DNA of 32,000 nt from Thermodesulfobacteriota bacterium (GTDB lineage: Bacteria; Desulfobacterota; WTBG01; JAGOGO01), in assembly GCA_026625185.1 (NCBI GenBank), contig CP113000.1, positions 3,132,651-3,164,650 of the forward strand. Direction: 5' to 3'. Below are positions 1,249 through 20,459 of this stretch, in pieces. The translations under genes and the position numbers were made by a program. A model generated the notes under the pieces. It was not told the origin of the DNA, searched no databases, and worked only from the letters and a program-made list of their open reading frames with translations. Within the stretch, counting starts at the first letter, position 1, and the number at the start of each line of letters is the position of its first letter.

Positions 1249-2388
<1,140 letters not shown>

Positions 2389-2620
2389 AAAGCAGGAATA
2401 ACATCTTTATAAAAAGATTTTCGTTTTTCTTCTTGTGAATTTCTGGCCACGTAAAATCTTCTGACCTTCTGGAAGTCTTAACGTAACCCACGTAAAATTT
2501 ATCATTTCTCGCCAAAGTGATTAAAATAAAGTTTTCGGTGAGGCCATCCATGGATGGATACTGTTTTTTAAGGAAGATTATTCCCAGGAAGAGACCTCTG
2601 TTGATATTAAGGAGCGATGT

Positions 2621-2881
2621 ATGCGGTATTGGTTTTTGATAATCATTTTAATTATTACTTTTGCTTGTTCAAAGCAGGAGAGTAAAATTTCCTTGTCCAA
2701 TCCTGAGGAGCCCACCCGGGAAGAATTGCGCAACGCTATGCGTTTTCACGGCATCTTGATTGCGAAACAAGATGAAAACCACGAATGGTATTTTATGCGC
2801 GAGGGAAAGCGTTGTCCACTCTTTGCTTATTTAAAAAAACAGCGCAATAAACAAAACAACGCATCTGAAAATAACTCTTAA
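2621..2881 (+). CDS. small hypothetical exported protein (possible lipoprotein)
   Basis: A strong SD (AAGGAG) lies 6 nt before the ATG. The N-terminus is hydrophobic (MRYWFLIIILIITFAC) and ends in Cys, a non-canonical lipobox. No recognisable domain. Confidence 0.5.
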   Translation: MRYWFLIIILIITFACSKQESKISLSNPEEPTREELRNAMRFHGILIAKQDENHEWYFMREGKRCPLFAYLKKQRNKQNNASENNS

Positions 2882-2994
2882 GCTTTTCCGGATTTCGCTC
2901 TCACTGAGAAAAGTCTTAGAATCCACCTGATCGGTCAAAATGAAAGGGGGCAAAACTTTTTTGTATCGGACCGCTTATAAGGGAAAGGTTGTTT

Positions 2995-4224
2995 TTAGTG
3001 ATTTTCCAGTTCAAAGATGTGATCTAATACTTGAACCCTTACTTTTTCTCCAGCCTTAATTTCCTTCTTATCCTCAGTTACCACCATTAATCCATTGGCC
3101 TGAATCATGGATTTAAGAATACCTGATCCTTGATCACCAGTGGTGGTAGCGCAGAGGACTCCCTCTCGAAAGCCTAAACGAACCCTGATAAAAAAACGGA
3201 GGTCCTTTTTTGTTTTCACATCATCAACCAAAACTGCTTCAATCTGAGATCGGAACAGATGCGTGTGCCCCATTTTTTTAAGCAGCGCGGGCCGAACAAA
3301 CTGTTCAAAACAAACCATGCAAGAAACCGGGTTGCCGGGCAGTCCAAAAATTAGTTTATCAGCAACAAGACCAAACGCTGTGGGTTTTCCGGGTCTCATC
3401 GCTACGTTCCAGAATTTTAATTCGCCACCTATATCCTCCAAAACATCTTTGACAAAATCATATTCTCCGACGGAAACGCCGCCGGTGGTAAGCATAACAT
3501 CAGCAGAAAGCCCCTGGGTGATTTTTGCCAAAATCTCCCTTTTATCATCCCTTGCAATCCCCAACATGAGGGGCACAGCTCCGCATTCTTTAACCTGGGC
3601 AGCGAGAGAATAGGTATTGCTGTTTATAATTTTCGACGAGTCTCCCTCTTCATCTATATCGATTAACTCATCTCCAGTAGAGAGAATCGCTACCGTGGGT
3701 ACCTGATAGACCGCAATAAAACTTTTCGAAAAAGAAGCAAGCATACCAATATGAGGGGGCCGGATAACTGTTCTCGCCTGAATAACCTTTTCCCCTCGCA
3801 TGACATTCTCGCCCGCGAGTCTGATATTTTCTCCTTTGTTCGGAGGTGCCAAAATGTAAACGTTATCTCCTGAAAACGAGGTGTCTTCCTTTCTCACTAC
3901 CGAATCTGCTCCTGGGGGGATCGGAGCGCCGGTCATAATATGGGTAGCTTGCATAGGTCCTACTTGGTTTTTGGGTAAAAACCCGGCCGGGAGCTCCTCA
4001 ATGACTTTTAATGTGGTTGGTTTATCAAAAGAAGCATTTTTTATATCATCAAACCGGACCGCATACCCATCCATCGCTGAGTTGTTCCATGGAGGGATGT
4101 TAAATGGGGCAATAATCTCTTCCCCGATCACTCTTCCGAGTGACGTGAGCAGATCAACCTTCTCAAGACTCATGACGTGAGTATGGCTCAAAACAATACG
4201 TTGGGCTTCATCAACGCTAATCAT
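2995..4224 (-). CDS. moeA: molybdopterin molybdenumtransferase MoeA
   Basis: MoeA-type sequence (NSAMDGYAV, TGGVSVGEYD, LPGNPVS). The ORF track extends to a TTG at 4257. I prefer the ATG at 4224 (MISVDEAQRIV...), which resembles typical MoeA N-termini. The start remains uncertain. Confidence 0.9.
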   Translation of the reverse strand: MISVDEAQRIVLSHTHVMSLEKVDLLTSLGRVIGEEIIAPFNIPPWNNSAMDGYAVRFDDIKNASFDKPTTLKVIEELPAGFLPKNQVGPMQATHIMTGAPIPPGADSVVRKEDTSFSGDNVYILAPPNKGENIRLAGENVMRGEKVIQARTVIRPPHIGMLASFSKSFIAVYQVPTVAILSTGDELIDIDEEGDSSKIINSNTYSLAAQVKECGAVPLMLGIARDDKREILAKITQGLSADVMLTTGGVSVGEYDFVKDVLEDIGGELKFWNVAMRPGKPTAFGLVADKLIFGLPGNPVSCMVCFEQFVRPALLKKMGHTHLFRSQIEAVLVDDVKTKKDLRFFIRVRLGFREGVLCATTTGDQGSGILKSMIQANGLMVVTEDKKEIKAGEKVRVQVLDHIFELENH

Positions 4225-5220: not shown

Positions 5221-6822
5221 TTAGATGCTTACGCTCTTAACCTTTTTGACTAAAACAAAATAATCAAACACCACCCGGGTTACGAATATAGCCGTGAAGA
5301 AACTCGCCATAATTCCAACGCACAAAGTCACGGCAAACCCTTTCACCGGACCCGTGCCAAACTGAAAAAGAATGGCAGCGGCAAGCACGGTGGTAAGGTT
5401 GGAATCGAAAATCGCGGAAAAAGCTTTCGCGTAACCTGCGTCTACCGAAGCCCAGATGGTTTTCCCGGCGCGCAGCTCCTCCCGGATACGTTCAAAGATA
5501 AGGACATTAGCGTCCACCGCCATACCGAGGGTGAGCACAATTCCCGCGATACCAGGAAGAGTGAGAGCAGCCTCAAAACCTGCTAATACCGCAAAAATAA
5601 TAACCATGTTGAGGACAAGAGCAAGATCAGCAATCAAGCCGGATAATTTGTAATAAAAAACCATAAATAATAATACGAGGAGGCTTCCGATAACGGTAGC
5701 GCGAATCCCTTGATCAATAGAATCCTTACCGAGTGAGGGCCCCACGGTTCGTTCTTCTAAAATTTTGATTGGCGCTGGCAGAGATCCTGCTCGTAAAACG
5801 ATCGCCAGGTCTTTGGCCTCCTCTAAGGTAAAGCTTCCCTCAATCTGCGCCCGGCCTCCTCCAATCGGTTCCCGAATGACCGGAGCTGATTTAACAACAT
5901 TATCGAGAACAATGGCGAGCCTTTTCCCCACATTATTTGTGGTTACCGTTTTAAAAATCTTTGCCCCTTTAGCATTAAACTTAATTGAAACATAGGGTCG
6001 ATTATACTGGGCGCTATCAATTTGGGGTTGGGCGTCAACCAGCATATCTCCGGTCAAAAGTGTTCTTTTCTTTACCAGTAGAGGTGTCCGGGCGGTCACT
6101 ATTCCGGTTTCTTTATCCACTGTTTCTTCATAAAGAATTTCATTTTCCGGAGGAACTCTTCCTTCGAGCGCTTTCTGCACACTGTCTTCATCATTTACCA
6201 GCTTGAACTCTAACATCGCCGTCTGTTTGAGTAACCTTTTTGCTCGTTCCGGATCACTGAGGCCGGGCAATTGAATGAGAATCCGGTCCTCCCCCTGGCG
6301 CTGAATATTTGGTTCGGTCACCCCAAACTGGTCAATCCGATTCCGGATAGTCTCGAGAGCTTGTTTTACTGCCGAGTCCTTGACCGAGCGGATTTCATTT
6401 TTATCCAACCCGAAAAGCGGCCGATAAAAGTTCTCGCCGGTTTCAGGTTTCAGGCTGGAGAGCGCGGGGAAGTTTTTTTTCATGACCTCGGCAAATTTTT
6501 CATTGTTAGATTGATCCAGTAATTCGACGGCAATGGTTTGACCCTTACGGAGGGTAATCTCAATAAAAGGTATCTTTTCTTCATCGAGCACCTCTTCCAG
6601 CGTCTGGACATACTGACTGAGAGTATTTTCAATCGCTTTATCCGTTTGAACTTCTGTAATGAGGTGCATTCCTCCTTGGAGGTCTAATCCAAGATGAATT
6701 TTATCTACATTATCCTTCCACCATGGAGGGAGATTATCGGTAATCGAAGGAATTAAATAAAAAATGCCGGCCACAATAGAAAGTATAACTAAAACAGCTC
6801 GCCACGTTAAATTCCTCACCAT
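5221..6822 (-). CDS. secD: protein translocase subunit SecD
   Basis: 533 aa with LGLDLQGGMHL and MAVDANVLIFERIREE motifs, in the classical yajC-secD-secF order. Confidence 0.95.
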   Translation of the reverse strand: MVRNLTWRAVLVILSIVAGIFYLIPSITDNLPPWWKDNVDKIHLGLDLQGGMHLITEVQTDKAIENTLSQYVQTLEEVLDEEKIPFIEITLRKGQTIAVELLDQSNNEKFAEVMKKNFPALSSLKPETGENFYRPLFGLDKNEIRSVKDSAVKQALETIRNRIDQFGVTEPNIQRQGEDRILIQLPGLSDPERAKRLLKQTAMLEFKLVNDEDSVQKALEGRVPPENEILYEETVDKETGIVTARTPLLVKKRTLLTGDMLVDAQPQIDSAQYNRPYVSIKFNAKGAKIFKTVTTNNVGKRLAIVLDNVVKSAPVIREPIGGGRAQIEGSFTLEEAKDLAIVLRAGSLPAPIKILEERTVGPSLGKDSIDQGIRATVIGSLLVLLFMVFYYKLSGLIADLALVLNMVIIFAVLAGFEAALTLPGIAGIVLTLGMAVDANVLIFERIREELRAGKTIWASVDAGYAKAFSAIFDSNLTTVLAAAILFQFGTGPVKGFAVTLCVGIMASFFTAIFVTRVVFDYFVLVKKVKSVSI

Positions 6823-7275: not shown

Positions 7276-8448
<1,173 letters not shown>

Positions 8449-8505: not shown

Positions 8506-9552
8506 TCAAAGTATCAACATCGCATCCCCATAACTATAAAATCGATACTTTTTTGTAATCGCCTCATGATAAGCTCTAAAAATCATTTCCGTGCCCGCAA
8601 AAGCCGAAACCAGCATCAACAAGGTAGACCGAGGCAGATGGAAATTGGTAATCATTCCCTTAACCGCCCGGAACTCATACCCCGGATAAATAAAAAGGTC
8701 AGTAAAGCCGCATAAGGTGTTTTTTTTGCTTATCCAGGTTTCGAGGGCTCGCGCTGACGTGGTACCACACGCGATAATCCTTTGTCCATGTTCAATACCA
8801 CTCGTAATCTTTTTCGCAGTCTCAGGGCTTATTTTATAATATTCGCTATGCATCCGATGGACTTCAACCTTATCTACCCGGACGGGTTGAAAAGTACCTA
8901 CCCCCACATGAAGCGTGAGAGAGACGACCTCAATCCCCTTTTTTTTTATCCGGTTTATAACCCGGTTGGTAAAATGCAGGCCGGCTGTCGGAGCAGCGGC
9001 AGAGCCACGATTCCGGGCAAAAATTGTTTGATAACGAGCGCGGTCAAAAGGTTCCTGGTTGTCATGTTCTCTTTTAATATAAGGAGGAAGCGGTGTTTTT
9101 CCGATCCGTTCTAAAACTTCCTCAAGATCACCGGCGTAGATTAACTCAATATCCCAAAGCCCTTCTTTTTTTTGCTTAACCACCCGGGCGTTAAGCTCTG
9201 GCCCAAAGAAAAGGGTTGATCCGATCTGCGGATTTTTTGAACAATCGATTAGCGCTTCCCAAATATTTTTTTCTTTAGGGTATTCCAAGGCATTTAGGGG
9301 CTGGAGAAGCAAAACCTCCACCTTCCCTCCTGTCTCCTTATGGCCAATAATCCTTGCCGGCCTTACCTTGGTGTCGTTTACAACGACAATATCTCCAGAA
9401 TTTAAGTAATTATCAACTTCCGCAAAAATAGCGTGTTCAATTTTCTCTTCTTCACGAAAAACAACCATGAGCCGGGATGCATCCCTCTCTGGAGCGGGAG
9501 CCTGAGCTACAAATTCTGGAGGCAAGTGATAATCAAATTCATTAACCAGCAT
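8506..9552 (-). CDS. queA: S-adenosylmethionine:tRNA ribosyltransferase-isomerase
   Basis: N-terminus FDYHLPPEFVAQAPAPERDASRLMVV and the PTAGLHFT motif. The gene sits upstream of tgt, as in the E. coli queA-tgt-yajC-secDF cluster. Confidence 0.95.
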   Translation of the reverse strand: MLVNEFDYHLPPEFVAQAPAPERDASRLMVVFREEEKIEHAIFAEVDNYLNSGDIVVVNDTKVRPARIIGHKETGGKVEVLLLQPLNALEYPKEKNIWEALIDCSKNPQIGSTLFFGPELNARVVKQKKEGLWDIELIYAGDLEEVLERIGKTPLPPYIKREHDNQEPFDRARYQTIFARNRGSAAAPTAGLHFTNRVINRIKKKGIEVVSLTLHVGVGTFQPVRVDKVEVHRMHSEYYKISPETAKKITSGIEHGQRIIACGTTSARALETWISKKNTLCGFTDLFIYPGYEFRAVKGMITNFHLPRSTLLMLVSAFAGTEMIFRAYHEAITKKYRFYSYGDAMLIL

Positions 9553-9565
9553 AAGAATATTTAAA

Positions 9566-9703
9566 GTAAACCGCGTTAGAAGGGTTTCACACGGGGCATT
9601 TACCAGGTGTGAAAAGTGTAAAAATTTTTAAATTTATCCCGTGCTTCTTCACACTTTAGATAGTTGATACCAAAAAGGCCTTTCTAACGGGGTAAAAGTT
9701 TTT
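9566..9703 (+). repeat. intergenic repeat family 1, full-length copy A (core 9571-9692, terminal inverted repeats)
   Basis: The left end CCGCGTTAGAAGGG (9571-9584) is the inverted complement of the right end CCTTTCTAACGGGG (9679-9692). The internal blocks TTTCACAC, CATTTACC, GTGTAAAAAT, ATTTATCCCGTG, TTCACAC and TAGTTGATACC align with copy B (11546-11670) and partly with copy C (15594-15656). Confidence 0.85.
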
Positions 9704-9851
9704 AATTCTTAACAAATTAAGGTATTAATTTCAAGGAGAAAAAACAGGGAAAGACAAAAAATAAGATCAAATACTTAAAAACTTCGTTCTGAGCCTATAT
9801 TGTTGGGGGGTTATTTCAAGAAATAATGAACGAAACGCGAAATGATGAGGC

Positions 9852-10349
9852 CTATTTCTTAGGTTTTGTGGTTCCTTCCCAGATAAATCTCCCGCTTTTT
9901 CCTCCAGATTTTTCCTTCAGGTGGATATCGGAAATAGTCATACCCCGGTCAACTGCTTTGCACATATCATAAATCGTGAGCGCAGCTACTGCAACCGCGG
10001 TAAAAGCCTCCATTTCCGCTCCGGTTTTTCCCTTGATTTTAACCGTGGCTCTAATATCAATCCGGCTTTTTCCCCTCACCGGGGAAAAGTCAACCTGAAC
10101 ACTGGTTATTGCAAGAGGATGACACAGAGGGATTATGTCAGGAGTCCTTTTCGCCCCCATAATTCCAGCAATCCGGGCCGCTCCTAACACATCTCCTTTG
10201 CTGATCTTTTTATCTATTATAAGGCGGAAAGTTTCGGGTTTCATAAATATAGAGCCACATGCAGTTGCTTCCCGCAAGGTCTCATCCTTTTTACTCACAT
10301 CCACCATTATTGCCTTCCCGTGATCATCAAAATGGGTTAATTTCTTCAT
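9852..10349 (-). CDS. moaC: cyclic pyranopterin monophosphate synthase MoaC
   Basis: 165 aa of MoaC-type sequence ([42 protein letters not shown]). SD GGAGGG upstream. Directly downstream of moaA. Confidence 0.95.
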
Positions 10350-10436
10350 CTTCCCTCCATTTTGCCGGGGATCAGGGCTCAGTGGTCCGGGGTCAGCATT
10401 TCCTGATCCACACTCCCTGATCCCTGATCTTTGTTT

Positions 10437-11423
10437 TTATCCTCCGATCAGACTCATTGTCCGCTGGCACTTCTTGAAATGCGCTTCATGAATCTGATGT
10501 TGCTTGGGTTTTTTCTCGAGAGCATGGAGAAGTTTTTCGCGTAATTTTTCGTCATCGCAGCCGTTCCTTAAGAAAGGTTTAAGGTCTATCTCATCATCAT
10601 GAAAAAGACAGGTGCGCAAGTGTCCGTCTGCGGTTAAACGAATCCGGTTGCACAGGTGGCAAAAATGGCTGCTTATAGGATTTATGAAACCAATTTCTCC
10701 GAGGGAGTTTTTTAATTGATACCGAACTGCCGGGCCATCATTTTTTTCATCAGGCAAGGGAATTAATGTTCCCAGCTCTTGAATTTGTTCCTTAATGTGA
10801 GAGTTAGGATACACCAGCTCATGGTTCCATCGGCTCTCCCCAGCCGGCATATATTCAATAAATCTGACGACCAACGGAAAGTCGAGGGTAAGGCGGGCAA
10901 AATCGAAAACTTCCTTTTCATTTGTCCCGTTAATGATAACCACATTCAGTTTTACCGGAGATAATCCCACTGTTATGCATTCCTGTATCCCTGCCCAAAC
11001 ATCATGAAACTTATTTCTCCGGGTAATGCGAAAAAAGGTTTCCGGGTCGACCGCGTCCAAGCTGATATTGATCCTCTTTAAACCAGCAACTTTTAAAGGA
11101 CGGGCAAAATCCTTAAGCAAAACCCCGTTGGTGGTCATACTCAGATCTCTAATACCGGGTATTGCGGAAAGCTCGGTGATAAAATTAACAATACCTTTTC
11201 TCACCAATGGTTCTCCTCCGGTGATTCGAACCTTGTTAATTCCTTCTTGAGCATAGACCCTTACCAAACGAAGAATTTCTTCATATCGTAGAATATCCTC
11301 ATGATCAATAAGCGGTATTCCCTCTTCCGGCATACAGTATTGACATCGGAGGTTGCACCGGTCAGTAACCGAAATTCTTAAATAATTAATGGTGCGTTGA
11401 TATCGGTCTTTAAGAATTTTCAT
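10437..11423 (-). CDS. moaA: GTP 3',8-cyclase MoaA (radical SAM)
   Basis: INYLRISVTDRCNLRCQYCMP radical-SAM cluster motif and a C-terminal CxxCxR...C cluster (CHLCNRIRLTADGHLRTC). The track start at 11429 is a TTG. The ATG at 11423 (MKILKDRY...) is more likely. Confidence 0.95.
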   Translation of the reverse strand: MKILKDRYQRTINYLRISVTDRCNLRCQYCMPEEGIPLIDHEDILRYEEILRLVRVYAQEGINKVRITGGEPLVRKGIVNFITELSAIPGIRDLSMTTNGVLLKDFARPLKVAGLKRINISLDAVDPETFFRITRRNKFHDVWAGIQECITVGLSPVKLNVVIINGTNEKEVFDFARLTLDFPLVVRFIEYMPAGESRWNHELVYPNSHIKEQIQELGTLIPLPDEKNDGPAVRYQLKNSLGEIGFINPISSHFCHLCNRIRLTADGHLRTCLFHDDEIDLKPFLRNGCDDEKLREKLLHALEKKPKQHQIHEAHFKKCQRTMSLIGG

Positions 11424-11433
11424 AAGCAAAAAT

Positions 11434-11465
11434 AAAAAAAGCCGCCTTCCTTGCTAGGAACCGGC
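11434..11465 (-). terminator. hairpin plus U-tract between the riboswitch aptamer and the moaA start (candidate attenuator)
   Basis: The minus strand reads GCCGGTTCC-TAGCAA-GGAAGGCGGC followed by TTTTTTTATTTTT. The stem is GCCG/CGGC plus TTCC/GGAA with a small internal loop. Confidence 0.5.
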
Positions 11466-11477
11466 TCATTAACTTTT

Positions 11478-11700
11478 CTCCTTTCCAAGCACGGGAGGCA
11501 ACGCCGTTTCCAGCGATACCCTAACGGCCTTTTACCCTGAGTAAACCCGGTTAGAAGCTTTCACACTGGACATTTATCCCGTGGGCAGCAGTGTAAAAAT
11601 TATTTTATTTTTCCCTGCGCTTTTTCACACTGTTAGCTAGTTGATATCCAACAAGACATTTCTAACGGGGAAAAAACTTTTAGGCACAAAGGCTCGGAGG
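11478..11700 (-). promoter_or_regulatory. molybdenum-cofactor (Moco) riboswitch candidate, interrupted by repeat copy B
   Basis: The minus strand reads ACCUCCGAGCC...[insert]...GGCCGUUAGGGUAUCGCUGGAAACGGCGUUGCCUCCCGUGCUUGGAAAGGAG. The blocks CCUCCGAGCC, CUGGAAACGG, GCCUCCC and GGAAAGGAG match my recollection of the conserved core of the Moco RNA motif. The position immediately 5' of moaA-moaC is the canonical one. Not verified with a covariance model. Confidence 0.65.
11546..11670 (+). repeat. intergenic repeat family 1, full-length copy B, nested in the moaA leader
   Basis: The ends CCCGGTTAGAAGC (11546-11558) and TTTCTAACGGGG (11659-11670) are inverted complements. The internal blocks are collinear with copy A. 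Confidence 0.85.
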
Positions 11701-11948
11701 TATAATAATAATAATGTATCTTTTTCATAATCAAAGTCAAGAAAATAAAACTTTAGGAAAAATCCCGCCTTCCGGAAAAATTATTTACTTTCAGGTACAT
11801 TCAAATTAATGATGCTTTTTATACCAAGTTGCATTTAAAAATAGATCGAGTCAGGGACGAGGAATCGACGCAGGCGCACATTTAAGTACGTCGAGGAGTA
11901 TGACGAGGGGACAACAAAGATATACAAATGAAGGCGACTTGGTATTAA

Positions 11949-13262
11949 TCAGATCTTTTTAAGCAACGTAATTGATTCCAGATGAAAGGTTTGGGGAAAC
12001 ATGTCAAACGGTTGAGTCATTTCTACTCCATAAGAGCCATACTTTTTAAGAAATTGAATGTCGCGGACAAGGGTAGCCGGCTCGCAAGAAATATATATTA
12101 TGTTTTTTGAGTTTAACCGGATAATTTCTTTTAAAATTTCCTTTGCTCCTTTCCGAGGAGGGTCCATTATTATCAGATCAAAGGATTCTTTTCTCAATGA
12201 TTTTATTCCATCTTTTACTGAGCCGGTTATCCATTGAATGTTTTTCCGAACATTCCGTAAGGCATTGGCTTTCGCGTTTTCCACCGCATAAGGGTTACTT
12301 TCTATTGCTAAAACATTTTGCGCCACGAAACTCACCGGGATGGTGAAATTTCCCATGCCGGCGTAAAGTTCTAATACTTGTTGAGCTCCCAGGTGTTGGA
12401 TCCAGCTTAAAACAATGGACATTATTATCCGGTTAACCTCAGGGTTTACCTGACGAAACACCTCAGGCCAAGCCTCAAGAACAAGATATCTTTCCCCATC
12501 TTTAAACGGCAGGGAATATAAAACCCCGGAAGGCGCTTCCGCTTCTTTCCACAAAATAACCGGCCTTCTTTCTTTCCGAGCAACTAAGTAAAGCCCCTTA
12601 ACCAGAGGAATCTCTTGAACTATTTTCTCTAACGTCTTTTCCACATTATCGGGAAGTCTTGTCGCGCTAAAAAAAGTGATCAGGTTTTTTTCACCAGGAA
12701 AATCACAGGAAATAGCCACATCAGTCACCTGGTTAGCGTCGGCTCTTTTTAGCATTCCGCTTATCTCTGCCAAAATTGACCGGACCAGAGGATGAAGCAC
12801 AAGACATTGATTTACGGGTACTACTTTATTGTCTCTGGGGGTCATAAACCCGACTAAAGGTTTTTCGCGCCAGTCAACGTGTAACTGACTATGAGAGCGA
12901 TAACCAAATTCATTCGCGGAAAATAAAAGTTCTTTTACTTTTTGTTCGTTAATTTTCACGTGATGAGTAAGCATTTCCCGAAAAATTTCTTCTTTTAACG
13001 TCCTTTGAAAAAATATCGGAAGGTGTTGCAGCTGACACCCGCCACAAGCGCCAAAAAAAGGACACGGAGGTTCCCGGCGCAACAAAGATGGTTTGATTAA
13101 TTTAATGATTTCCGCCTCATCGTAATCCCGGTGAGCACGGGTAATGTTGACTTCCGCTTGATCTCCCGGGGCGGCAAAGGGAACCAAAACCACCTTTCCT
13201 CCTCTGCGGGCAATCCCCATACCTCGGTGTCCCATTTTTTGTATATCCACGACAAAATTCAT
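11949..13262 (-). CDS. 23S rRNA (uracil-5-)-methyltransferase RlmD/RumA-family RNA methyltransferase
   Basis: N-terminal TRAM-like domain, a Cys cluster (CPFFGACGGCQLQH), SAM-binding ELYAGMGNF, DPPRKG, and the catalytic ISCEPATLVRD motif. Confidence 0.88.
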   Translation of the reverse strand: MNFVVDIQKMGHRGMGIARRGGKVVLVPFAAPGDQAEVNITRAHRDYDEAEIIKLIKPSLLRREPPCPFFGACGGCQLQHLPIFFQRTLKEEIFREMLTHHVKINEQKVKELLFSANEFGYRSHSQLHVDWREKPLVGFMTPRDNKVVPVNQCLVLHPLVRSILAEISGMLKRADANQVTDVAISCDFPGEKNLITFFSATRLPDNVEKTLEKIVQEIPLVKGLYLVARKERRPVILWKEAEAPSGVLYSLPFKDGERYLVLEAWPEVFRQVNPEVNRIIMSIVLSWIQHLGAQQVLELYAGMGNFTIPVSFVAQNVLAIESNPYAVENAKANALRNVRKNIQWITGSVKDGIKSLRKESFDLIIMDPPRKGAKEILKEIIRLNSKNIIYISCEPATLVRDIQFLKKYGSYGVEMTQPFDMFPQTFHLESITLLKKI

Positions 13263-13354
13263 TTATTCCTTTTACGCAACTGTTGTTACCGCACGGTTGA
13301 TTTTTGGCTCAGTTAACGGCATAATGATATTTTAAGTTTATTCACGGAGGAAAG

Positions 13355-13750
13355 ATGAAAACAGAAAATTTTTTTCCAAAAGTAATTGTTTTCTTCATGG
13401 CGGTTTTCCTTTTCGCTGCTACCCTGAGTGCTAATGAACCCGTGGTTATGCTGAATGCCCAACCAGTCGGCGACCTAGCGACCGATTATGAAATTACCAT
13501 TACGGTTTACCATGAAGGGAAAGGGCGTTCTCACTATTTGGAAGGAGTAATCCTATTATTAAATGAAGTGCCGATTAAAGTTTGGCAATATTCGCAAAAG
13601 GATAGTCCTAAGGATTTCCCCTTAATTTTAAAGAAAAGAATAAAAATCTCTCCGTCTGGTCCTTCCATGATAGCGGCAAAAGCCACCTGCACCTCTGATG
13701 GCGAAAATGATCGGACTTCTCTCCAAATAGTTCCGGGAAAAAGTTATTAG
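13355..13750 (+). CDS. hypothetical secreted protein
   Basis: SD GGAGG before the ATG and a clear signal peptide (KVIVFFMAVFLFAATLSANEP). No domain I can name with confidence. Confidence 0.6.
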   Translation: MKTENFFPKVIVFFMAVFLFAATLSANEPVVMLNAQPVGDLATDYEITITVYHEGKGRSHYLEGVILLLNEVPIKVWQYSQKDSPKDFPLILKKRIKISPSGPSMIAAKATCTSDGENDRTSLQIVPGKSY

Positions 13751-13826
13751 ACGAGAGGATATCAAGGGCGACAAACCAGCAGACCGGGAACCATTTCCGT
13801 GAAATAAATAAAGCGGTGGTGATTTG

Positions 13827-14321
13827 TTAATCGTCTTTGAGCGCTTTAAAGTGAGGTAAGAGTTTGTTATACGTATCTTCCAGGTGTTCAGGCATCACGC
13901 GCACATCGCCGAAAACAGGCATAAAATTAGTATCTCCATTCCATCGGGGCACAATATGGATATGGAGGTGATCTTCTATGCCTGCACCCCCTGCCTTCCC
14001 CATATTTATCCCCACATTAAAACCTTCCGGTTTTAAGCAGGTACGAAGAATGCTCATCGACTTCTTGAGCATCATGAACATATCAAGCACCATATCTCCA
14101 TCTAAATCTTCTATGGCGTGAAGATGTTTAAAAGGAGCCACCATAAGGTGACCATTGTTGTAAGGATAACGATTCATGATCACAAATGATAAAGAGCTTC
14201 GTAAAAGAATCAATTTTGTTTTATCCTGGGTTTCGTCTTTACCAAGGCAGAATATACACTCTTTTGTTTTTTTGCTTAGAATGTATTCCATCCGCCAGGG
14301 AGCCCAAAGATTTTTCCTCAT
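13827..14321 (-). CDS. HIT-family nucleotide hydrolase/transferase
   Basis: Histidine-triad motif HLHIHIVPR, with the upstream NRYPYNNGHLMV segment. Confidence 0.88.
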   Translation of the reverse strand: MRKNLWAPWRMEYILSKKTKECIFCLGKDETQDKTKLILLRSSLSFVIMNRYPYNNGHLMVAPFKHLHAIEDLDGDMVLDMFMMLKKSMSILRTCLKPEGFNVGINMGKAGGAGIEDHLHIHIVPRWNGDTNFMPVFGDVRVMPEHLEDTYNKLLPHFKALKDD

Positions 14322-14333
14322 AGTTAAAACTCC

Positions 14334-14810
14334 TTAAACCTCAATTATTTTTCCCGTTATCCGATCGCTTGTTTCTAACATGCCGATTGTATTCATTTCC
14401 GAAAAGCGTTTTTCGGTAGCTGACCCAGGATTGAAAAAAAGAACTCCCTTGATAACCTGATTCACCGGATAATGAGTATGCCCGTAAACCAAGCAATCTA
14501 TCTCGGTAAACTCCTTGCTAATGCGATTTTCCAGACCTACAGGACTCCCCCAGCCATGGATAAGTCCTATTTTAAACGAGTTGACTTTAATAATCTTTTT
14601 CACTGGAAAGTGATTCCTTACCCGCGCAGAGTCCATATTGCCAGCCACCGCCTCAATTTTTTTTGTTAAAAAAGCATCCAACACCTCCATCTCCACAATA
14701 TCACCGGCATGTATGACCATGTCTACATCACCAAAATGCTTATCAATAATCCGTTTTAGCTCTAAACAACAGTTGTGAAGATGAGTATCAGAAATAACGC
14801 CAATCTTCAT
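14334..14810 (-). CDS. YfcE/MJ0936-family metallophosphoesterase
   Basis: MKIGVISDTHLH, HAGDIV, GNMD, GHTH and FNPGS motifs, 158 aa. Confidence 0.88.
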   Translation of the reverse strand: MKIGVISDTHLHNCCLELKRIIDKHFGDVDMVIHAGDIVEMEVLDAFLTKKIEAVAGNMDSARVRNHFPVKKIIKVNSFKIGLIHGWGSPVGLENRISKEFTEIDCLVYGHTHYPVNQVIKGVLFFNPGSATEKRFSEMNTIGMLETSDRITGKIIEV

Positions 14811-14969
14811 TTTGTTAAGCTCCTCACCTTAGATAAAAAGATATTAAAAACCTCTATACAAACTTTATGAAAAATTTTCAAGCTCTTTTAAACGAAGGCT
14901 ACCCAAAAAAATCACTTTAATCCGTCACTATCTTTTTAGGTTTTTCTATGGTTTGTTTATGTGGTTTTT

Positions 14970-15512
14970 TTAGAAAATAATGTTACTATTCGGTAGGTTA
15001 TTCAAAGAAAAACGAATCCCGGACTCTATACCCGTCCGAGAAGCGAAAACCCTATTAATCATAATGAGGATGGTGTTAAGTCGCTCCAAATGAAGAAAAT
15101 CGGTTTGAGGCAAAAGCTCCAAATAATAAAAAGTAAAATTTTTTGGACAGCAGTCCCGTATTTCTTTATCGCCTTCCGTAATAAAAAGCGGAAGTCCATG
15201 AGTGCGGCAAACAATGGGGCGGCGTTCATATAATACACATGCTCCGTGGTCAAGCAAAACACACGGAGTATAGTCCCCAACCCTTTGAGCAGCCCGGTTG
15301 CGAACGATCTTTTTCATTGAAGCGGGTAAAAGAGAAAACCCTTTCTGAAGAAAGGAGTATTCGATGGAAAGCAGGTTTAAATTCTGCTGACAACAATCAC
15401 TGCACCCGTAACCACAGCTAATATGTTCCCGATATTCTTGGATGAGCCGGGAACTAAATTCATCAACTTTGTTTAACAGCTTTTGGTAGTTGCAAAATAT
15501 TTCTTCGGCCAT
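14970..15512 (-). CDS. YkgJ-family cysteine-cluster (Zn/Fe-chelating) protein
   Basis: CGYGCSDCC and C-terminal Cys motifs typical of the UPF0153/YkgJ family. The track start at 15572 adds a hydrophobic, improbable extension. The ATG at 15512 (MAEEIFCNYQ...) is preferred. Confidence 0.7.
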   Translation of the reverse strand: MAEEIFCNYQKLLNKVDEFSSRLIQEYREHISCGYGCSDCCQQNLNLLSIEYSFLQKGFSLLPASMKKIVRNRAAQRVGDYTPCVLLDHGACVLYERRPIVCRTHGLPLFITEGDKEIRDCCPKNFTFYYLELLPQTDFLHLERLNTILIMINRVFASRTGIESGIRFSLNNLPNSNIIF

Positions 15513-15588
15513 GGCATACAAAAAAAGAATTGGAACAGGAAAAGAAGTAAAAAAAAATATTTTATCATGCAAATTGAATTTCCGGAAG

Positions 15589-15656
15589 TTAAACCCCGTT
15601 AGAAGGATTTCACACGGAACATTTACCCCGTGCTTCTTTGTCCTGTTAGGAGATGG
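15589..15656 (+). repeat. intergenic repeat family 1, short copy C
   Basis: AAACCCCGTTAGAAGGATTTCACACGGAACATTTACCCCGTGCTTCTTT matches the left end of copies A and B. It then jumps to their second ATTTATCCCGTGCTTCTT block, as if ~40 nt between internal direct repeats had been deleted. The right end is divergent. Confidence 0.7.
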
Positions 15657-15738
15657 AAAAATAACTTTCCTTTTAAATCTGGAAGAGCTACTCTAAGGTA
15701 AAAGAACACTTAAAGAAAAATTCCAAAAACCTTGTCCT

Positions 15739-17316
15739 ATGTATGACCTGATAATCAAAGAAGGCTTAATAGTTGATGGAACCAACTGCCCAGGAAGAAA
15801 GGGAGATGTTGGAATTTTAAAAGATCGAATTGTTTTTATAGGTGAATTACCTCATGATCAGGGGAAAAAAATTCTCTCTGCAGAAGGTAAAGTTGTTGCT
15901 CCTGGTTTTATTGACATCCATTCCCATTCTGATTTCACTCTCCTTGCAGATCCGCGAGCGGATAGTAAAGTTTACCAGGGAGTAACCACAGAACTCATTG
16001 GGCAGTGTGGTGTGTCTGCCGCTCCTCTGGAAGGCGCGGTTCGAGAACGAAGAAAAACTGAGTTGACTGATTTGGGGATTCCCCTCACCTGGACAAAACT
16101 CGATGAGTATTTTCTCCGTCTGGAAGAAGTCCAGCCGATTGTCAACATCGCCACCTTAGTTGGCCATGGCAACCTTCGGGGGTGCGTGGTCGGTTATGAA
16201 AACCGCCTCACGTCTCAAAGTGAATTAAAAAAAATGGTGGCTCTTCTGTGTCAAGGTCTTAACAGCGGAGCTTTTGGTATCTCAACCGGTCTCATCTACC
16301 CCCCCGGTGTTTATTCGTCAATTGAAGAGCTGCGTGTATTAACAAAAGTGGTCGCTGAATCTGGTGGTCTGTATGCCACGCACCTCCGAAGCGAAGGAGA
16401 GGGACTGGTGGAAGCAATCCAAGAGGCTCTTCATATTGCTGAGACAGGTGGAGTCTCCCTCCAAATCTCCCATCTCAAGACCCACGGGGGGAAAAATTGG
16501 GGGAAGCTGGCAAAAGTTTTTCATCTGATCGAAAATTTACGGGCAAAAGGTTTTAATATTCATGCTGACCGGTATCCATATACTGCCTCTTCCACAGATT
16601 TGGATGTGCTCCTGCCTTCGTGGGCATGGGAAGGCGGCAACCAGAAAGAATTAGCCCGTTTGTCTGACCCGGACACCAAAAAGAAAATGACCGAAGAGAT
16701 TTTATCGCAAAATCCCGAACCTGATTTTTGGGAAAAAGTGATAATCGCGTCAGTTAAAAAAGAAAAAAACCGCTGGGCGGAAGGGAAAACACTGGCGGAA
16801 ATCTCTTCAGACAAAAAATGTGCTCCCTGGGAGATGCTTTATGACCTTTTGCGGGAAGATGAACTCGGAGTGAGCGCCATCTTTTTCTTGATGAGCGAAG
16901 ATAATCTTAACCAAATTATTCTCAAAGAGTATGTGATGATCGGGACCGACAGTTCCACCCGCTCGGCCTCCGGAATCCTACGACGAGGGAAACCCCATCC
17001 CCGCGGTTTCGGCACCTACCCACGCATCCTCCGTCATTTCACCGGACAGGGGAAGCTTCTATCCCTTGAAACTGCTGTCCACAAAATGACCGGACTCCCG
17101 GCAAAAAAGCTGGGTTTGAACGACCGGGGAACAATTCACCCCGGCTGTTACGCGGATCTGGTTGTCTTGGATCCTAAAACCGTCTGTGACCGTTCTGACT
17201 ATGACAATCCCTTCCAGTATCCGGTTGGTATCGAACATGTTTTCATCAATGGCGAGGAGGTTATCTCTCAGGGAGCAGTTACCGGGAGGAGGCCGGGAAG
17301 AATTCTGCGGAAATAA
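15739..17316 (+). CDS. N-acyl-D-amino-acid deacylase (D-aminoacylase) family amidohydrolase
   Basis: 525 aa with N-terminal DLIIKEGLIVDG..., a metal-binding DIHSHSD motif and the overall D-aminoacylase architecture. Confidence 0.88.
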   Translation: MYDLIIKEGLIVDGTNCPGRKGDVGILKDRIVFIGELPHDQGKKILSAEGKVVAPGFIDIHSHSDFTLLADPRADSKVYQGVTTELIGQCGVSAAPLEGAVRERRKTELTDLGIPLTWTKLDEYFLRLEEVQPIVNIATLVGHGNLRGCVVGYENRLTSQSELKKMVALLCQGLNSGAFGISTGLIYPPGVYSSIEELRVLTKVVAESGGLYATHLRSEGEGLVEAIQEALHIAETGGVSLQISHLKTHGGKNWGKLAKVFHLIENLRAKGFNIHADRYPYTASSTDLDVLLPSWAWEGGNQKELARLSDPDTKKKMTEEILSQNPEPDFWEKVIIASVKKEKNRWAEGKTLAEISSDKKCAPWEMLYDLLREDELGVSAIFFLMSEDNLNQIILKEYVMIGTDSSTRSASGILRRGKPHPRGFGTYPRILRHFTGQGKLLSLETAVHKMTGLPAKKLGLNDRGTIHPGCYADLVVLDPKTVCDRSDYDNPFQYPVGIEHVFINGEEVISQGAVTGRRPGRILRK

Positions 17317-17506: not shown

Positions 17507-17612
17507 AGCTCCGGGAATAGTTCACTTTAAGCCTGTTTTGTACTGTTTTAGTCTGTCTACTATATAAAAACCATACAGTGGAGGGGGCCTGATTTTGAGC
17601 CCCTTTTATTGG
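17507..17612 (+). repeat. repeat family 2, copy D1 (ends in a plus-strand hairpin plus T-tract)
   Basis: Aligns over ~106 nt with 20353-20459, about 70 percent identical by hand alignment. The 3' end is GGGGC-N10-GCCCC followed by TTTTATT (17584-17610). Confidence 0.8.
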
Positions 17613-20352: not shown

Positions 20353-20459
20353 AGCACCCGGAAATGGGTCACTTTTAACCTGGTTAGGGTTGTTTCTGAC
20401 TGTCTACTTGACAATTACCTTACACTGAAAGGGTCTTAATTTGAGGCCTTTTTTATTGG
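20353..20459 (+). repeat. repeat family 2, copy D2 (ends in a plus-strand hairpin plus T-tract)
   Basis: Collinear with D1. The 3' end is GGTCT-N7-AGGCC followed by TTTTTTATT (20432-20457). There is no plus-strand ORF upstream. Confidence 0.8.

Follow-up and report, generated by a model that had tools for sequence, protein, structure and literature searches.

A dispersed family of short inverted-repeat elements in Thermodesulfobacteriota, with one copy inside a Moco riboswitch

The repeats and their gene neighbourhood

Three related repeats, here called copies A, B and C, lie close together in a 32,000-nt stretch of a Thermodesulfobacteriota genome (contig CP113000.1; hereafter the window, with positions counted from its first nucleotide). 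The neighbouring genes on the minus strand are tgt (7276–8430), queA (8506–9552), moaC (9852–10349; TIGR00581), moaA (10437–11429; TIGR02666), rlmD (11949–13262) and a gene for a CxxCxxCC protein (14970–15572), and an amidohydrolase gene (15739–17316) follows on the plus strand. Copy A (9571–9692, plus strand, 122 nt) is a full-length copy of the long form described below and belongs to a window-specific subfamily. It sits between the moaC stop codon and the queA start, 18 nt upstream of the queA ATG (14 nt counting the flanking TAAA), and it has a TAAA on its left (9567–9570, plus strand) and on its right (9693–9696). Copy B (11546–11670, plus strand, 125 nt) is also a full-length long form; it lies beyond moaA, in the terminal loop of stem P2 of a molybdenum cofactor (Moco) riboswitch, and is flanked by TAAA (11542–11545) and AAAA (11671–11674; one base mutated). 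Copy C (15594–15649, plus strand), beyond the CxxCxxCC gene, comprises the left 56 nt of a short-form copy preceded by its target TAAA (15590–15593).

All three copies are on the plus strand and between open reading frames (ORFs). A repeat search of the window returned three copies of a 43-nt family (9567, 11541 and 15590) and, for the right end, two copies of a 35-nt repeat (9670 and 11648). The left-end block TTTCACACNGNNCATTTAYC occurs three times, against 0.27 occurrences expected by chance, and a 12-nt end motif was found at five of five expected ends (both ends of A and B, and the left end only of C). The terminal inverted repeats are CCGCGTTAGAAG/TTTCTAACGGGG in copy A and CCCGGTTAGAAG/TTTCTAACGGGG in copy B. 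The original prediction, made from the letters of the window, had described three intergenic repeats on one strand with shared inverted ends. The repeats do lie between ORFs and at the coordinates given, except that the last 7 nt assigned to copy C (15650–15656) are not element DNA; the shared inverted ends apply to A and B, but C retains only the left ~56 nt and has no right inverted repeat. As had also been proposed, the elements have no coding capacity: the longest ORF touching copy A or B is 35 aa.

For comparison, related loci were fetched from other assemblies and numbered (L001 onwards; 1.1 Mb in total). Copies A, B and C are unchanged in L001–L003, and the 5-kb L004 carries copy A; these are four assemblies with identical QueA. 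The same region is present in an 837-kb metagenome contig and in the metagenome-assembled genome (MAG) GCA_029216075.1.

Distribution, insertion sites and anatomy of the family

The repeats are not confined to the window. A strict left-end pattern matched 26 loci, which come from four MAGs with the labels Thermodesulfobacteriota or uncultured delta proteobacterium; a second pattern searched against metagenomes matched at least 120 loci. An nhmmer profile recovered 39 copies in the first set of loci plus the window and, at E ≤ 1e-8, 152 non-overlapping copies in the 1.1 Mb of fetched DNA. These copies occur in either orientation, 149 of them are outside ORFs, and they adjoin many different genes; approximately one in four loci, among the matches listed, has two or three. 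Because the loci were picked for the presence of an element, density estimates from them are biased, a point against the mobile-family interpretation. The element itself has no Rfam match, in keeping with the earlier impression that it belongs to no described family: a gathering-score search of the window and a search of 9300–16000 at E ≤ 10 returned no family for it, and the latter gave nothing over A or C and, over B, only the surrounding Moco riboswitch. A literature search with the end sequence, a distant blastn search of the consensus against PLSDB plasmids and a pattern scan of IMG/VR viral contigs produced nothing relevant.

Evidence for mobility comes from the orthologous region in relatives whose MoaA proteins are 95, 93, 90 and 83% identical to that of the window. 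Site A is empty in L031, L033 and L034, where the flanks match the window almost base for base with a clean gap at the element. On the minus strand the empty site reads ...CTTTTA|CTATAAAT, with a single TTTA, and the occupied site in the window reads CT[TTTA]CCCCG...GCGG[TTTA]CTTTAAAT. Site B is empty in L033, L034 and L035 (AAGTT[TTTA]CTCAGGG); when occupied, the element is flanked by TTTT/TTTA in the window and by TTTA/CTTA in L031. Thus relatives with 90–95% identical MoaA have no element at site A, and three of four relatives have none at site B. Comparison of the empty and occupied sites indicates that the element proper runs from CCCC to GGGG and that the flanking TAAA is a 4-bp target duplication; the (G)TAAA that had been assigned to the element ends is therefore duplicated target. 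The original prediction had proposed a dispersed, possibly mobile family, and it agrees with the further copies in related genomes, the target-site duplications and the empty sites in close relatives. The outcome it had named as fatal to that idea, that further copies are lacking and that relatives carry this sequence at the corresponding loci, was the opposite of what we observed: copies are many, and relatives have empty sites.

The same tetranucleotide flanks both sides of 61 of 88 non-redundant element candidates. In eight of those 61 the matching 4-mer is not TAAA (TGAA in four, CAAA in two, TGTA and TCAA in one each); such left–right identical deviations are what a duplicated target predicts. 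The bases that precede the target are A or G (68% and 23%) and then G (79%), giving a target of RG|TAAA. A 5-bp duplication of GTAAA was considered and rejected, because GGGG followed by TAAA is found at the right end even of elements whose left TAAA is preceded by C, A or T. Targeting of hairpin loops, an idea that arose from the riboswitch loop and from copies nested in the loop of an internal palindrome (H1, below), was likewise rejected by a test of target structure: reconstructed targets show no more structure than control RGTAAA sites do (mean −4.0 versus −4.8 kcal/mol), and the TAAA falls within an enclosed loop in 22 of 57 reconstructed targets compared with 244 of 505 control sites.

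The elements are modular. The outer inverted repeats are 12–13 bp long (CCCCGTTAGAAGG ... CCTTCTAACGGGG), extending to 26 bp in a minimal 58-nt form, and full-length copies end in CCCCGTTAGAAG(G) and (C)YTTCTAACGGGG. Inside the terminal repeats are two or three internal palindromes, H1–H3: H1 is TTTCACACGGGG-CATTTA-CCCCGTGTGAAA; the weaker H2 is GTAAGAAT...ATTTTAC; and H3 is CCCTGTTAGATAT-TTG-ATATCTAACAGGG, enclosed by the stem CCCCGTGCTT/AAGCGGGG. The long-form consensus is CCCCGTTAGAAGGCTTTCACACGGGGCATTTACCCCGTGTGAAAAAGTGTAAGAATTTTTAATTTTACCCCGTGCTTCTTCACCCCGTTAGATATTTGATATCTAACAGGGCAAGCGGGGCATTTCTAACGGGG. Copies range from 58 to 140 nt, and 75 full-length metagenome copies, among the matches listed, fall into clear length classes: the complete long form of ~134 nt; a short form of ~99 nt without the segment between two CATTTACCCCGTG direct repeats; a ~101-nt form without H3; and the minimal 58-nt form, which is one perfect 26-bp hairpin (L028). 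The short form would have arisen by deletion between the two CATTTACCCCGTG repeats and the second ~100-nt form by loss of H3. Nested and tandem copies are found in L014, L018 and L021. A 24-nt unit consisting only of ends, TTTA|CCCCGTTAGAAAGATCTAACGGGG|TAAC, is present in L016 (986–1013), and copies in L014 and L021 have similar TCCCGTTAGAAAATTTTCTAACGGGA units nested within the loop of H1; these units may be extreme deletion derivatives or excision footprints.

The three copies in the window are old and diverged. Identity to the consensus averages 91% for long forms, compared with 80% for copy A and 72% for copy B, and the DNA fold z-scores against shuffled sequences are −8 to −15 in other MAGs but −2.5 for copy A and −2.8 for copy B. 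Copies A and B have thus drifted from the consensus and barely fold better than shuffled sequences, hence the conclusion that they are old; a deletion in the right arm of H3, specific to their subfamily, is common to both.

A probable mobile element family and rival explanations

Taken together, these observations make it very probable that the repeats form a dispersed mobile family of MITEs (miniature transposable elements with inverted repeats), the best explanation overall for the CCCC...GGGG elements. By published definitions (PMC10969869), all of the sequence features of a MITE are present apart from an identified parent insertion sequence (IS): terminal inverted repeats, a target duplication, small size without coding capacity, dispersed copies and presence/absence polymorphism. 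The combination of terminal inverted repeats with a duplication of fixed length points to a transposase acting in trans and making a 4-bp staggered cut. Such an enzyme, probably of the DDE type, would bind the terminal repeats and insert the element at RG|TAAA, so that the staggered cut duplicates TAAA. A second MITE family and a nested IS in the same genomes, both described below, were also counted in favour of the MITE interpretation, given that other elements there behave alike.

Several points weigh against it. The expected autonomous partner would carry the end pair CCCCGTTAGAAG...CTTCTAACGGGG with TAAA duplications, and the search for a transposase with the same ends, which had been proposed as a check, found none: across the 1.1 Mb there is no IS with matching ends, inverted end pairs 0.6–4 kb apart enclose housekeeping genes and none of those spaced 0.7–3.5 kb holds a transposase, orphan ends adjoin housekeeping genes, and no multi-copy non-syntenic protein is a transposase. 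Because no autonomous partner was found, the transposase family and the cut-and-paste step are only inferred. The copies used for end statistics were selected by a regular expression that required the end motifs, so that the apparent invariance of the terminal repeats is partly an ascertainment effect. Furthermore, copies A and B look like fossils and are probably no longer mobile. As a tentative lead only, the parent may be IS1380-like, a group with 'CC' ends and 4–5-bp duplications in ISfinder.

One candidate for the parent was rejected. L107 holds an intact long-form copy (6149–6283), and at the same genomic site in L077 the copy is interrupted (1975–4027) by a ~1.9-kb insert that might have been a full-length parent of the MITE. 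The insert, the only IS seen, is instead bounded by inverted repeats of its own (CTGATTTTTAACAGTTA/TAACTGTTGAAGATCAG) and by a TTAGA duplication inside H3; it encodes a 553-aa DDE_Tnp_1 transposase (2149–3810) and is not the partner of the MITE.

A hairpin-rich element with a near-constant flanking tetranucleotide could also be a palindrome like the repetitive extragenic palindromes (REPs) and REPINs, or one derived from IS200/IS605, moved as single-stranded DNA by a tyrosine HUH transposase (RAYT/TnpA). The enzyme would recognise the subterminal hairpins H1 and H3 and insert by a fixed TAAA without a true duplication. The construction of the element from hairpins, down to the minimal form that is a single perfect 26-bp hairpin, suits this model, as do a few compensatory changes in the hairpin arms, and an empty site with one TAAA is predicted equally by both. 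However, IS200/IS605 elements have distinct left and right subterminal hairpins without terminal inverted repeats, and they insert 3' of a fixed tetranucleotide with no duplication; true terminal inverted repeats are present here. REPs and REPINs are marked by a 5' tetranucleotide of the GT[AG]G type, inverted doublets and no duplication; here the flanking 4-mers form a direct TAAA...TAAA repeat, rather than the inverted arrangement of REPIN doublets, and they co-vary. The eight copies with identical left and right deviations from TAAA fit a duplicated target and not an end encoded by the element. No RAYT/Y1 gene was seen beside the copies, although that search was not exhaustive. We therefore regard transfer by an HUH enzyme as improbable. 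That the three copies arose by local segmental duplication or gene conversion in the 6-kb region only was suggested by their proximity and by the subfamily features common to A and B, but it is refuted by the copies found elsewhere: several MAGs and many metagenomes hold more than 150 of them among unrelated genes, every insertion comes with a target duplication of its own, and this explanation has next to no probability left.

The other function that such hairpins might serve is as RNA. The repeats could be a structured cis-regulatory or small RNA (a terminator, an attenuator or a riboswitch-like switch) kept for its RNA function and not for mobility; all three window copies are in the leaders of minus-strand genes in one orientation, stable stem-loops are predicted, and copy B is certainly within a transcribed leader. 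Across 109 copies with genes on both sides, however, there is no orientation bias relative to the flanking genes (++ in 36, −− in 32, divergent (−+) in 30 and convergent (+−) in 11). RNAalifold recovered the invariant outer stem only. In a hand-drawn four-stem structure, 90.4% of cells were paired compared with 90.0% in shuffled controls; covariation was weak, with a small excess of double changes (14 versus 7.8 in shuffles), and most substitutions break pairs. A selected RNA structure was rejected on these grounds. The original prediction had further proposed mutually exclusive hairpins between blocks 1:2 and 2:3. The 1:2 pairing occurs family-wide, but the 2:3 pairing is not conserved because it requires CACAC, a motif found only in the window subfamily where the family consensus reads CACCC. 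With orientation unbiased, covariation weak and the alternative hairpin confined to one subfamily, the proposed switch-like RNA is not supported; together with the absence of a matching Rfam family and, above all, the empty sites at the same loci in close relatives, which largely refute it, this leaves a conserved RNA module very unlikely.

As a MITE family, the elements resemble several known systems, although they have no sequence in common with Correia, BOX or BIME repeats. Correia elements of Neisseria (CREE/NEMIS) are non-coding, ~100–155 bp long, and have terminal inverted repeats and a short A/T-rich target duplication; there are hundreds of copies, mostly intergenic, in two main size classes set apart by an internal deletion, and they are often co-transcribed with neighbouring genes as long hairpins. 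Our family resembles them in these traits, among them the two size classes and, presumably, co-transcription. There is no sequence similarity and the hosts belong to different phyla; our elements have a 4-bp duplication (TAAA) compared with TA for Correia elements, and their terminal repeats are 12–13 bp, reaching 26 bp only in the minimal form. Like the BOX elements of pneumococci and the bacterial interspersed mosaic elements (BIMEs; REP clusters) of enterobacteria, the family is built from a few palindromic modules that vary in presence and number (PMC3184786, PMC10969869), with nested and tandem arrangements and a very stable predicted single-strand structure. REPs and BIMEs, unlike this family, have no target duplications and are tied to RAYT, whereas the present elements have defined terminal inverted repeats and a target duplication; the boxA, boxB and boxC modules of BOX are unrelated to it in sequence. 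A further comparison is with type II prokaryotic MITEs, which resemble their parent IS only in the terminal repeats (PMC10969869): the family shares with them small size, absence of coding capacity, terminal inverted repeats, a target duplication, an interior unrelated to a transposase gene and copies that far outnumber any parent IS, but differs in that no parent IS was found here. The family accounts for many unannotated palindromic intergenic blocks of ~100–140 nt in an uncultured lineage of Thermodesulfobacteriota, and the consensus and the target rule RG|TAAA can be used for masking. The elements also mark recent change, as seen in polymorphism between genomes with 90–95% identical proteins, in nesting and in the breakpoint at copy C. 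The general understanding of MITEs is unchanged; the main interest lies in the clean polymorphisms and in the insertion into a riboswitch loop.

Copies B and C and other repeats of the region

Copy B had been placed in anonymous intergenic DNA, but cmscan located it inside a Moco/Tuco (molybdenum or tungsten cofactor) riboswitch aptamer (RF01055; 11462–11711, minus strand) in the leader of moaA–moaC. The match (E = 2e-13) scored 64 bits, where the gathering score is 36, and covered model positions 1–135, with a 132-nt insertion in the P2 terminal loop that is exactly copy B plus its duplication. In relatives free of the insertion the aptamer spans 121 nt, scores 84 bits and has an identical core sequence; aptamers with the insertion score 64–67 bits and their core is unchanged. 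A promoter-like site lies at 11740–11711 on the minus strand. In the interval from the aptamer to the moaA start, the sequence shows a terminator-like hairpin followed by a U-run (GCCGGUUCCUAGCAAGGAAGGCGGC UUUUUUUAU; 11432–11465, minus strand); it is kept in L031, L033, L034 and L035 and is presumed to be the expression platform. In the minimum free energy fold the base of P2 is kept and the element forms a distal extension closed by its own inverted repeats, so that the inverted repeats of copy B are predicted simply to lengthen P2 and to leave the aptamer intact.

The riboswitch of L031 is occupied at the same TTTA, where the window has a copy of the A/B subfamily and L031 a canonical short-form copy. 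Common ancestry of the two copies is unlikely; because their subfamilies differ although the flanks are nearly identical, independent insertion or conversion is a better explanation than descent. The aptamer is unchanged in both the window and L031, two diverged lineages, which suggests that the riboswitch may work with a hairpin of 100–130 nt on P2; the unchanged core, the predicted fold that keeps P2 and the intact moaA point indirectly to a riboswitch that may still work. It is conceivable, although we consider it rather unlikely, that the distal loop of P2 is a permissive landing site colonised at least twice by the MITE family; on that view a mobile element would be a tolerated, or even kinetics-modifying, structural module of a riboswitch. 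In addition, since no partner IS was found, the family may be moved by a transposase that is not yet recognisable. Copy B in any case offers a natural experiment in the tolerance of a Moco riboswitch for additional RNA in its P2 loop. In MITE reviews, riboswitches appear only as motifs within or formed by MITE-type repeats (PMC10969869, PMC3184786), and a MITE inserted in a riboswitch aptamer is not described in either; this was a limited search and is no proof of novelty.

Two further features of these leaders were observed. The Moco riboswitch of this lineage has no optional P3 hairpin, whether a MITE is present or not (window 11462–11711, minus strand; L033 5848–5968), and Moco variants without P3 have been proposed to sense the tungsten cofactor; in this case the riboswitch would control moaA–moaC. 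The moaA–moaC spacer is 237 nt in L031 (2899–3135) and 87 nt in the window; the ~150 extra nucleotides had no nhmmer match to the main family and may be another inserted element.

In L067 and L145, the place of copy C by the CxxCxxCC gene holds a short-form copy that is complete (99 nt) and has TTTA on each side. In L067, ~8 kb with six ORFs separates that copy from the amidohydrolase gene, and the window is without this segment (15573–15738 compared with L067 2673–10893). At the junction in the window, the amidohydrolase side (L067 to ~2767) runs straight into the element's interior (L067 ~10768), with a short CYAACA microhomology at the join, and the last codons of the neighbouring L067 gene are kept. 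This comparison identifies copy C as a deletion-breakpoint remnant and not a simple short form. The original prediction, an internal deletion between direct repeats, was correct in that the short-form junction is present, but the copy has also been cut by the ~8-kb deletion relative to L067. Among the six ORFs missing from the window are those for a response-regulator HD protein and a type II secretion/type IV pilus (T2SS/T4P) ATPase. Intermediate versions of the copy C region are found in L145 and L005/L033. The region is a hot spot of rearrangement, and MITE copies lie at its edges.

Directly after the rlmD stop codon (11822–11944) lies another MITE-like element, 123 nt long and unrelated to the main family. 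Its inverted repeats are TACCAAGT...ACTTGGTA, and it has a TTA/TAA duplication, with flanking TTA at 11819–11821 and 11945–11947. It is absent from the rlmD site in L031, L033, L034 and L035; it is present after a cation-efflux gene in L107 and absent there in the syntenic L077. Blastn found copies or parts of it in ~25 other loci. In L150 (11113–11312), a copy of the main family contains a nested third element of ~145 nt whose inverted repeats are CAGGCTGTTGAAAAACTA.../...TAGTTTTTCAACAGTCTG and which has a CTAA duplication. Other elements seem to find targets in the GTTAGA/CTAAC core of the main family.

The window also contains another intergenic repeat, in two ~100-nt copies that are 71% identical (17511–17612 and 20358–20459, plus strand), with one further partial copy in L141. 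Rfam gave no match at E ≤ 1. A terminator-like GC hairpin followed by a T-run closes each of the two window copies, and the repeat might represent either a small RNA gene or a 3' or leader element that is shared.

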